Part shown: in pieces, positions 5,110-7,035 of the stretch
Numbering within the stretch: position 1 is the first letter of the stretch
How the letters are laid out: each line of letters starts with the position of its first letter
IMG/VR virus record: IMGVR_UViG_3300002307_000150
Span: 1 to 33,046 of that record
From: a virus
Taxonomy: Duplodnaviria; Caudoviricetes
Length of the DNA stretch: 33,046 nucleotides
Reading direction: 5' to 3' (one strand)
The notes under the pieces: generated by a model
The model's database searches: none
The model's input: only the letters and a program-made list of their open reading frames with translations
Told to the model about the DNA's origin: nothing
Made by a program: the position numbers and the translations under genes

Positions 5110-5862
5110 TTACCCTATTAGTCCACCAGCCCAGTTACCAATTTGCTGCCAACCAGTATATCCTTGCGAATTTGGTTCGTTCATGGAATTTATTGCAGAA
5201 CCAATTTGTTGACCAATTCCAGCTTGGCCAGCGCTTAAATTTTGGTATCCTTGACCCATTGCATTTGCCATAGCACCACTTGTTCCAGCAAGTGTACTAG
5301 CGGCGTTTAGTCCAACTCCAGAAGCATTTCCATAATTATTAACATTCTGACCATACATGTTCATAATCTGAGCGTTCTGAGATAGGTTCTGATTAAACGC
5401 TGTACCATACGCTTGTTGCGCTCGTTGCCATGCGTTCTGGAATCCAGTGGACGCCTGATTCTGCGCGTAATTATTCATGGCTTTTGCGGCTGCACCAGAC
5501 AATAAACCGCCTGTTGCTGCTGCTGAATTTTGTACGCCTTGCAAGCCTTGCTGAAGTTGGAACTGATACCCAGGCGTTGCTTGCAGTTCTGCTAGGTTAC
5601 TAACCATTGGCGTATACAATGGGCTTTGTTGATAGTCTGCCATTGTGTACGGTTGTGCATAAGTACCCAGATTAGTTTCATATTGGCCTAATGCGTTTTG
5701 GTAATTTGGTAAATTGGTCTGACCAAAATTCATGTATGGTTGCAGATTTTGTTGATTCTGCTCATACATTTGTTTGACTTGGTTAATGTAATCCTCTTGG
5801 GAACCGGCGGACATTGCCGAACCTGCAATTCCTGCTGCTGCACCTGCTACTGCGAATGGCAT
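5110..5862 (-). CDS. DNA transfer/ejection protein, P22 gp7-like
   Basis: Ala/Gly-rich N-terminus, LQPY..G, TPGYQFQLQQG..GVQNSAAATGGLLSGAA.KA...Y.Q..A motif typical of gp7-like pilot proteins. Confidence 0.8.
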   Translation of the reverse strand: MPFAVAGAAAGIAGSAMSAGSQEDYINQVKQMYEQNQQNLQPYMNFGQTNLPNYQNALGQYETNLGTYAQPYTMADYQQSPLYTPMVSNLAELQATPGYQFQLQQGLQGVQNSAAATGGLLSGAAAKAMNNYAQNQASTGFQNAWQRAQQAYGTAFNQNLSQNAQIMNMYGQNVNNYGNASGVGLNAASTLAGTSGAMANAMGQGYQNLSAGQAGIGQQIGSAINSMNEPNSQGYTGWQQIGNWAGGLIG

Positions 5863-6419
5863 AATTGCCTCCTATCTGATCGTATGCAAATAATAAGTGT
5901 GATCCTATCTATAGGAGAATCATTCCTGACCCAGTGGAGAACTTGGTTATTAAACCAGTAAACCTCTCCTGGTTGTGCAGAATATTCACCTTCTTCAAAG
6001 CAAAACGCTTGCTGTGGATGGCTCTCAAGCTGAATTGCATATTTATCGTAATACGCTGCATGCCAACTAACATCGACATGAGGAGCCACAGAACCGCCAG
6101 CCGGTATCCGTGTAATGAGTATGCCGCCAAGTCTTTCACCTTGAACACGGCTCATAATTTGAAAGGCCAAGTCCCTTACAGCTGGTAATCGTTGCGCCGC
6201 TTCATACCAAACAGGATCATGTTCTTCATTGAAGTCAGACCATGACCCGTTAAACTCTGCATAATCTCTGTATCTAACCCAAATGTCTGATATTCCTGTA
6301 TGAGGACTATCATATCGTTCAGTTCTGTTTGTGTACATATTCCACAAATATGGATTCTGTTTAATTTGTAGTAATGCCGGAATATGGTCAACTGCACCGA
6401 TAGACATTACATTATTCAA
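5847..6419 (-). CDS. Aspartyl/asparaginyl beta-hydroxylase family 2OG-Fe(II) oxygenase
   Basis: ITRIPAGGSVAPHVD (HxD), GEVYWFNNQVLHWVRN (distal His), DRITLII (2OG-binding Arg). Confidence 0.85.
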   Translation of the reverse strand: MNNVMSIGAVDHIPALLQIKQNPYLWNMYTNRTERYDSPHTGISDIWVRYRDYAEFNGSWSDFNEEHDPVWYEAAQRLPAVRDLAFQIMSRVQGERLGGILITRIPAGGSVAPHVDVSWHAAYYDKYAIQLESHPQQAFCFEEGEYSAQPGEVYWFNNQVLHWVRNDSPIDRITLIICIRSDRRQLCHSQ

Positions 6420-6892
6420 ACCATCTCCCTCACAAGTTCAATTGCTGCTTGATCCTGCACGTTCATATCGCATAGAAAATTAAATCTATGAATGTTGAAC
6501 GGTAAGCCAAACAAAGTCCTACACACTTTAGACATCACAACAGGATTAAATAAATCCTCAAACGGTATCCTGTAACCTTCAATCTGACTTAATAGCTCTA
6601 TTGAGTCATCCGGCATTGAAGGAAGCGCCAACTTTTGCAAGGAGGCATTGATCTCATTTAAAGATCGTTCAATAATTAGTTTAGGTGCAGGATGTGCGTT
6701 TATCTTTTCAATCTGATAAATAGCACTGGTTTCCGCTATGCCTAATCTAAATCCATAATCACGATGATCAAGTTCATCTATCGTGTAATGAATAAAACTT
6801 TCATGTAAACACAAGCTGGTTTCAGTGGTTAAAAGATTAGCCGCCCAAGCAGTGCCGGAGCGGGGTAATCCTATAACCATGAATTTAATCAT
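6416..6892 (-). CDS. Minimal sulfotransferase-fold protein (PAPS-binding)
   Basis: 5'-PSB loop [18 protein letters not shown], 3'-PB RX7S ([10 protein letters not shown]), IPFEDL matching the YEDL motif. Confidence 0.75.
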
Positions 6893-7035
6893 TTCTTCTT
6901 ACAGCAACCTGACTTACTTTTACGCGCTTCAGAATAAGCAATAGCAGTCGCTTGTTTTACAGGTTTACCTGCCTTAACTTCTGTAGCAATGTTCTTGCTA
7001 ATGGTTTTCTGTGAAGAACCTTTTTTTAACGGCAT
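6889..7035 (-). CDS. Small basic phage protein (48 aa), absent from the ORF track
   Basis: [60 protein letters not shown] overlap with the sulfotransferase; resembles a recurrent phage family (MPLKKG.S...IS.NI...G.P.KQA.AIA). Confidence 0.8.

Follow-up and report, generated by a model that had tools for sequence, protein, structure and literature searches.

The slot upstream of the first ejection gene

In T7 and P22, a small gene or genes separate the tail closure gene from the first ejection gene and form a slot in which unrelated families replace one another (PMC4819975; PMC6775973). The T7 occupant, gp13 (IVP-A), is a non-structural gene of an acetyltransferase family, and in phiRIO-1 another family (gp39) replaces it (Hardies et al., PMC4819975). 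The available text of a review of ejection proteins (PMC8954989) does not contain the word "acetyl". In bacterial operons, Iyer et al. predicted hydroxylation and then sulfation of co-encoded tail-collar or collagen-like proteins by the same two enzyme classes as those described below, sometimes accompanied by acetyltransferases (PMC2938197). The subject of this analysis is the slot of a P22-like podophage, IMG/VR record IMGVR_UViG_3300002307_000150 (the window, 33,046 nucleotides; 86% complete), which holds a putative sulfotransferase and a predicted 2-oxoglutarate (2OG)-Fe(II) oxygenase directly ahead of a gp7-like ejection gene. Co-variation across relatives points to the N-terminal proline of that ejection protein as the likely target of the oxygenase (hydroxylase).

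Four overlapping minus-strand open reading frames (ORFs) were confirmed in the window:

6889..7035, minus strand: basic protein of 48 amino acids (aa) from a family common in phages (phrog_2423, E 1.1e-20), translationally coupled
6416..6892, minus strand: compact sulfotransferase-fold protein, 158 aa (phrog_10855, E 2.8e-30; fold; motifs)
5847..6419, minus strand: predicted 2OG-Fe(II) oxygenase of the prolyl 3-hydroxylase (P3H)/AspH clan, 190 aa, TTG start (PF05118, E 2e-7; fold; tree; clade A)
5110..5862, minus strand: first ejection protein, P22 gp7/T7 gp14-like, 250 aa, candidate substrate (phrog_598, E 9.6e-19)
5857..5859, minus strand: codon for proline 2 (Pro2) of the ejection protein, a position whose residue follows the clade of the hydroxylase

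The chain, the gp7-like gene at its end and the 16-nt overlap at the last junction were all found as the first-pass annotation of this DNA had described them. It had also read the first two junctions as ATGA. This held for the first; the second reads TTGA, with TTG 6419 as the start codon of the hydroxylase and its next in-frame ATG at 6407, and the relative L033 has ATGA at the equivalent junction of the sulfotransferase-fold and hydroxylase genes. The Shine-Dalgarno (SD) sequence of the gp7-like gene, AGGAGG, sits within the 3' end of the hydroxylase gene. Of 47 two-enzyme loci, 6 had the 48-aa gene ahead of the block; it was rejected as a defining part of the cassette, being peripheral to it.

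The position proposed earlier, that of P22 gp14 and T7 gp13, was borne out, the genes lying after the tail closure gene and ahead of the first ejection gene; in the window, a fibre gene and two other genes intervene between the gp10-like gene and the slot genes. Unlike the T7 and P22 slots as described in the available literature (PMC4819975; PMC6775973), that of the window has a 2OG-Fe oxygenase and a sulfotransferase fold and no GCN5-related N-acetyltransferase (GNAT), and the link between slot enzyme and ejection residue 2 comes from the present survey. Because none of the three slot genes of the window had a GNAT match in Pfam and PHROG scans, these are regarded as functional-position analogues of gp14/IVP-A and not as family members. 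Compared with the bacterial operons, the window pair lies in a phage late operon, its sulfotransferase is much shorter and an ejection protein is the candidate substrate. The operons have features of their own, namely synthetases for the sulfate donor 3'-phosphoadenosine-5'-phosphosulfate (PAPS) and PhyH-methyltransferase fusions, in what are likewise predictions (PMC2938197); no PAPS synthetase was found among the 33 window ORFs scanned, in a record that is 86% complete.

Slot content was surveyed with a DNA motif from the gp7-like core, the ejection proteins being too divergent for an alignment-based locus search. The motif sample, drawn without regard to slot content, comprised 120 loci from 2 of the 64 parts of IMG/VR (about 5,700 estimated overall); 80 had flanks and 66 were classed, the unclassed loci having no upstream DNA, no clear start, or an ejection gene other than the first. 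The slot held a cupin in 22 of the 66, a GNAT in 12, no enzyme in 11, a cupin–SET fusion in 6, a sulfotransferase fusion in 4, an unclear gene in 4 and a hydroxylase with a GNAT in 3. One locus each had a hydroxylase with a cupin, a hydroxylase alone, a GNAT with an unrelated sulfotransferase, and the sulfotransferase–hydroxylase pair of the window. Sulfotransferase–GNAT fusions occur in L073, L241 and L245 (phrog_1249; the GNAT assigned by profile) and a hydroxylase–GNAT fusion in L365; in L212 and L272, the partner of the sulfotransferase has no family assignment. Indeed, interchange of GNAT, sulfotransferase and hydroxylase upstream of gp7-like genes, raised in the first-pass annotation, was what the survey found, fusions with GNATs included. 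Judged by sequence, the slot is a swap site for predicted protein-modifying enzyme folds.

In the six cupin–SET loci (L219, L224, L239, L267, L269 and L278; phrog_34170), the ejection protein begins Met-Ser-Gly in five. Where a cupin stands alone in the slot, its PHROGs label is tail fibre or adhesin (12032, 24280), which is probably wrong.

The oxygenase and residue 2 of the ejection protein

The 190-aa protein is predicted to be a 2OG-Fe oxygenase of the P3H/AspH clan. It matched PF05118 at 31.4 bits (cut-off 22.6) and contains the metal triad H114, D116 and H162, with K126 and R172 at the likely 2OG positions. The HxD...H motif read earlier was present and conserved: the triad and R172 were invariant in 79 of 79 rows of the hydroxylase tree. 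The structural model (pLDDT 94.9), a double-stranded beta-helix, had proline cis-4-hydroxylase (cis-P4H) as its top Foldseek match (E 6.5e-10), and in the VIA search P3H, nucleoside hydroxylase, cis-P4H and AspH were tied at Z 15.0-14.2 (best P3H, Z 15.0, root-mean-square deviation (rmsd) 2.7, 149 residues aligned). The protein shares with P3H, cis-P4H and AspH (PF05118) the fold (Z 14-15), the HxD...H triad and a Pfam match above cut-off; it differs in being 13-16% identical to them, in having no tetratricopeptide repeat or C-terminal helical domain, and in its predicted substrate, an N-terminal protein proline.

The window ejection protein begins Met-Pro-Phe and continues with an Ala/Gly-rich hydrophobic segment. 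When residue 2 was read by hand from SD-supported starts, Pro2 was found in 84 of 84 anchored contigs with a hydroxylase and in 5 of 11 with the sulfotransferase only; the 84 include the window and five contigs read from non-canonical starts before Pro, and cut-off or unresolved ejection genes were excluded. A set of 43 hydroxylase loci from GTDB, independent of IMG/VR and including L354 from genome G095, had Pro2 in 39, a leader before an internal Met-Pro in two, one unresolved start and one hydroxylase not at an ejection gene, many of the downstream genes being identified from nothing more than their position and an Ala/Gly-rich start. In the unbiased sample, enlarged to 94 rows, Pro2 accompanied a clade-A hydroxylase in 6 of 6 rows and was present in 18 of 88 rows without one (Fisher p 1.7e-4, ignoring kinship). 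When 10 independent pairs were drawn on a tree built from the ejection core minus the N-terminus, about 7 were concordant and 0 discordant (sign test, median p 0.016 with a range of 0.008-0.063), in a run made after rows had been added and on a short low-complexity core; an earlier run on 125 rows was non-significant (p 0.125).

Pro2 was missing from most other virion proteins of the same contigs: it was found in 0 of 27 EJ16 proteins, 0 of 16 and 0 of 29 fibres and 4 of 30 gp4 proteins, and one second-ejection family had it in 6 of 6. Ala2 is found in three sulfotransferase-only lineages (L045/L063/L160, L177 and L178) that branch among two-enzyme loci, and other hydroxylase-free lineages nested among paired ones retain Pro2. 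From this pattern, Pro2 looks necessary for the clade-A hydroxylase but not dependent on it, and the hydroxylase likely acts on the proline at the N-terminus of the gp7-like protein and on neither Asn/Asp nor fibres. The first-pass annotation had named an Asp/Asn hydroxylase; its AspH/P3H-type fold was recovered, and the co-variation favours Pro as the substrate residue. It had further offered the Asn/Gln/Tyr-rich body of the gp7-like protein as a substrate; that richness was set aside as a guide, and the co-variation points to Pro2. Its preference for a virion protein over DNA as the target is supported by the late-operon position and by co-variation with a protein residue.

The hydroxylase tree contains a starred clade of 72, with Pro2 wherever residue 2 was resolved, and a starred sister clade of 7. 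Members of the latter are always accompanied by a GNAT, once as a fusion, and differ at G99R, K126R and C178D (7 of 7) and also at W119 and H120; the ejection protein starts with Val, Gly or a leader, and one row is not at an ejection gene. The seven appear from these substitutions to have a different pocket and go with GNATs and non-Pro starts. In a cultured phage, Pseudomonas fluorescens phage PfAn1, the slot is occupied by a clade-B hydroxylase and a GNAT. Prediction of a complex of the hydroxylase, ejection residues 2-41 and iron gave scores of 0.02, 0.44 and 0.01, which weigh neither way.

Some gp7-like genes behind a hydroxylase seem to start at ATC, ACG or ATA directly before Pro-Trp/Phe/Ile (L053:7108-7130, L058:7200-7215, L060:7645-7660, L104:4570-4585 and L144:6588-6600), and such weak starts may limit the copy number of the ejection protein. 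In-frame TAG at glutamine-like positions in the gp7-like genes of L050, L052, L117, L121 and L222 suggests podophages recoded from TAG to Gln. A charged leader of 14-30 residues precedes the Ala/Gly-rich segment in L182, L264, L327, L351, L352 and L365, reminiscent of the cleaved leader of P22 gp7.

The sulfotransferase-fold protein, its pairing and its setting

The 158-aa protein is predicted to be an enzyme of minimal sulfotransferase fold with PAPS motifs. Both motifs of PAPS sulfotransferases are present, the 5'-phosphosulfate-binding motif (5'-PSB, P-[RK]-S-G-T-x-W) as P10-R11-S12-G13-T14-x-W16 and the 3'-phosphate-binding motif (3'-PB, R-x7-S) as R76-x7-S84, under what we take to be their usual names and definitions; H30/E31 lie at the catalytic-base position. 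Conservation among 183 homologues was 97% for P10, 99% for R11, S12, W16 and R76, 97-99% for H30 and 93% for S84. The GLPRSGT and RX7S elements pointed out earlier are both included here. FEDL, listed with them, was variable (E112 in 17% and D113 in 50% of the homologues) and was rejected as a defining part. A Walker A motif, GxxxxGK[ST], was found in 0 of 183, which speaks against a small-molecule kinase, the outcome that would have told against the first-pass annotation.

Structure searches recovered the expected fold. The AlphaFold model (pLDDT 94.8) had TPST1 as its top Foldseek match (E 2e-4, TMq 0.66), and the first five rows of the VIA search were all sulfotransferases at Z 11.2-10.0 (best 4gox, Z 11.2, rmsd 3.7, 149 aligned). 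PF13469 was present in 13-61% of members of the Atlas structural neighbours, and the distant family members L065 and L074 pass PF13469. In the analysis as a whole, single-sequence PDB searches gave no useful match and profile searches gave weak matches only, to sulfotransferases (best E 0.017) and to cupins. With tyrosylprotein sulfotransferases and the olefin-synthase sulfotransferase domain (4gox), the protein shares the fold over residues 1-152, the 5'-PSB and the 3'-PB; it differs in length (158 versus about 275 aa), in identity (15-17%) and in being a cytoplasmic phage protein. The family is large, its profile matching 2,275 clusters (50% identity) at E 0.001 or better. The window protein is a direct member of phrog_10855, whose label, "hydrolase", looks wrong given the missing Walker A motif; the cultured members inspected lie outside the ejection slot.

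This sulfotransferase occurs in 50 GenBank phage records, from Pseudomonas, Stenotrophomonas, Variovorax and Xanthomonas phages. Members with intact motifs, annotated "nucleotide triphosphate hydrolase", stand in non-virion contexts in L012-L014 (PaMx11, PaMx25 and Baskent_P4_1), L047, L048, L064 and L175; the gene that follows in L064 and L175 is presumably CsrA-like. In L071 (6488-7072), L072 and L196, a citrate-synthase C-terminal-like gene adjoins the sulfotransferase ahead of the ejection gene. Given these neighbours and the sulfotransferase–GNAT fusions, it is possible that some family members bind the 3'-phosphoadenosine end of CoA.

A sulfotransferase profile identified 57 IMG/VR contigs, 40 of which had an adjoining hydroxylase, 11 no hydroxylase before an ejection-type gene and 4 other contexts, and 2 were cut off. 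The gene arrangement is not chance, since 40 of 57 contigs share it; both gene orders occur. Among the best 80 of 571 IMG/VR hydroxylase loci, a set leaning to relatives of the window, the sulfotransferase was present in 40, and among the 43 GTDB loci it was present in 2 and missing from 41. In L030, L031 and L036, the hydroxylase has been deleted internally to its first and last codons and the sulfotransferase is intact. On the sulfotransferase tree, hydroxylase presence switches 10 times, hydroxylase-free rows being nested among paired ones. A hydroxylase was found in 0 of 10 sulfotransferase-only records searched whole, of which only 2 are at least 90% complete. A single-protein locus search with the sulfotransferase returned 0 loci and its DNA pattern gave 0 matches in GTDB. 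Adenosine 5'-phosphosulfate (APS) kinase was encoded in 2 of 2 host genomes with the sulfotransferase and in 25 of 41 without it, counts that weigh neither way. The hydroxylate-then-sulfate pathway put forward in the first-pass annotation was supported in part only, the two genes being often paired. As an obligate pathway it is unlikely, because the sulfotransferase is kept after hydroxylase loss, the hydroxylase mostly lacks the sulfotransferase in GTDB, and Pseudomonas phages have members of the sulfotransferase family at sites distant from virion genes.

The chain belongs to a minus-strand run of terminase, P22-type portal, scaffold, coat, gp4-/gp10-like, fibre, three ejection-type, tail-collar fibre and endolysin genes. 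Its nearest neighbours are:

10491..12293, minus strand: head closure/tail gp10-like gene, the upstream edge of the slot (phrog_578, E 3.4e-104)
7076..9160, minus strand: Ser/Thr-rich fibre-like gene (13% Ser, 18% Thr), a rival substrate, between the head closure gene and the slot
2020..5105, minus strand: two more ejection-type genes (430 and 597 aa), an assignment made from place and size alone
604-2007: tail-collar fibre, three genes downstream

The 430- and 597-aa genes had no Pfam or PHROG match and are kept downstream of the gp7-like gene in relatives. A 331-aa gene between gp10 and the fibre (9496-10491, minus strand) has weak PHROG matches only (phrog_873, E 8e-5). Two DUF7936 genes (9160-9495 and 15992-16354) each adjoin a fibre gene, and a fibre-gene module of 209 nt occurs twice at 77% identity (8220-8428 and 18104-18312). 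The fibres of the window are 10-18% Thr, and the same window carries a tRNA-Thr(TGT) (20523-20598, minus strand) next to a GroES co-chaperonin gene (20607-20864, minus strand), both between the scaffold and coat genes. In the closest relatives, L001-L004, a GT4 glycosyltransferase gene (PF00534) takes over the fibre-adjacent position upstream of the 48-aa gene.

Proposed maturation of the ejection protein and rival readings

The two genes are proposed to encode non-structural enzymes that mature the product of the adjoining ejection gene by modifying its N-terminal tip, a reading to which the sequence comparisons give an even chance. Methionine aminopeptidase removes Met1 ahead of a small residue 2. 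Since residue 2 is small in 63 of 66 sampled ejection proteins, the host would be expected to remove Met1 of the ejection protein and expose the proline. The oxygenase would then hydroxylate this proline, a step that is fairly probable; an exposed N-terminal proline resembles the free proline used by the closest solved relatives of the enzyme. The sulfotransferase-fold protein would sulfate the same N-terminal segment, with host PAPS as the donor, and action on this ejection protein is conceivable at somewhat less than an even chance. The sulfate would go on the new hydroxyl where present and on another group where absent. Sulfation specifically of the new hydroxyproline is rather doubtful and, because the sulfotransferase is kept without the hydroxylase, would not be obligatory. 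By analogy with T7 IVP-A, the purpose might be guessed to be conditioning of the hydrophobic tip for procapsid loading, protection from host peptidases or insertion into the outer membrane.

Besides the reservations attached to the independent-pairs result, several findings weigh against such maturation. The slot is without an enzyme in 11 of 66 loci, and any mark is therefore not universally needed. Pro2 is not exclusive to hydroxylase loci, being present in 18 of the 88 rows without clade A and retained in L030, L031 and L036 after the internal deletion; gp10 has Pro2 in 19 of 47 hydroxylase contigs; and the sulfotransferase shows no residue-2 preference. The fold of the oxygenase does not name its substrate, free-proline, protein and nucleoside hydroxylases being tied. 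The 158-aa protein is about 100 residues shorter than known sulfotransferases and falls below the Pfam gathering cut-off (14.8 bits versus 27, E 0.034), and in the VIA search kinases follow at Z 10.0 and below, the best sulfotransferase being ahead by about 1 Z unit. The family stands away from ejection genes in 4 of the 57 IMG/VR contigs and, with no adjoining hydroxylase, in the three GenBank phages inspected.

A strict two-step scheme, in which the sulfotransferase solely sulfates the hydroxyl made by the oxygenase, was the view of the first-pass annotation and follows the model of Iyer et al., who predicted the same chemistry for bacterial operons (PMC2938197). It would account for the frequent pairing in both gene orders and for the finding that a stand-alone sulfotransferase of this family without a hydroxylase was seen in 0 of the 66 classed loci. 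It is nonetheless unlikely, given intact sulfotransferase motifs after hydroxylase loss in several lineages, the hydroxylase missing from all 10 sulfotransferase-only records searched whole, the rarity of the sulfotransferase at GTDB hydroxylase loci, and sulfotransferase–GNAT fusions without a hydroxylase. Small molecules or polymers of the host surface (free proline, lipopolysaccharide or exopolysaccharide sugars) might instead be the targets, the slot being a tolerant site for late-expressed cargo. Free-proline hydroxylases among the best hydroxylase folds, weak sequence matches of the other protein to NodH-type and cytosolic sulfotransferases, family members in non-virion regions of PaMx11, PaMx25 and Baskent_P4_1 and the glycosyltransferase just upstream in L001-L004 all fit this. 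It would leave unaccounted for both the tracking of residue 2 with the hydroxylase clade and the interchange of GNAT, SET, cupin and hydroxylase at one exact position, and appears improbable. Only slightly less probable is that the slot proteins serve as chaperones without catalysis, binding the ejection N-terminus in head assembly. T7 IVP-A is needed for morphogenesis and absent from the virion (PMC4819975), unrelated folds occupy the slot, and N-terminal co-variation is also expected from binding alone; invariance of the metal triad and R172 and 93-99% conservation of the PAPS-motif residues stand against it.

That Ser/Thr-rich tail fibres or tail-collar proteins are the substrates, also suggested in the first-pass annotation for the Ser/Thr/Asn-rich fibres, has in its favour the 23-31% Ser+Thr of the window fibres and the tail-collar substrates proposed for bacterial operons (PMC2938197). 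Of 47 two-enzyme loci, 21 have a Ser/Thr-rich fibre gene within three genes upstream, and the window with its close relatives makes up 20 of these; an ejection gene follows in nearly all two-enzyme loci; and Ser/Thr would not need a hydroxylase, all of which makes fibres a very unlikely target. The least probable reading, to which hardly any weight is given, is that the P-loop protein is a kinase or that the two enzymes act on DNA bases. Dephospho-CoA and shikimate kinases at Z 10.0-9.2, the "nucleotide triphosphate hydrolase" label in GenBank and AlkB-type folds at Z 13 or lower could be cited for it, as could homologues in phages that we take to carry modified DNA. Opposed to it are the lack of Walker A among the homologues, R-x7-S and W16 as sulfotransferase features, the late-operon position and co-variation with a protein residue.

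Compared with described systems, the locus appears to be new as a variant of a known slot with a predicted enzyme pairing and a specific substrate prediction. The literature searched, with partial coverage and no supplements (that of Iyer 2010 could list phage cases), held nothing relevant on a phage hydroxylase–sulfotransferase cassette, and N-terminal sulfo-hydroxyproline was not found there as a protein modification. More broadly, and speculatively, the first ejection protein of podophages could carry a swappable N-terminal code, with slot writers of acetyl, methyl, hydroxyl and sulfate groups matched to residue 2; this phage would then make an N-terminal sulfo-hydroxyproline that controls whether the protein is loaded, enters the membrane or evades host sensors of injected proteins, a long shot as a whole.

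The T7 gp13/P22 gp14 gene is needed for morphogenesis, and the available text of the slot literature names no substrate for it (PMC4819975; PMC6775973). If the proposed maturation is true, the co-variation gives a long-unexplained assembly slot a testable job, with a residue, an enzyme and a mass shift that lead to a peptide assay. Short-tailed phages would, in that case, place a post-translational mark on the first of their proteins to meet the host membrane. They would do so with a range of enzymes that at present carry mistaken labels (hydrolase, tail adhesin or metabolic cargo), and two of these, a small prolyl hydroxylase acting on N-termini and a sulfotransferase of minimal size, might be of use as tools.

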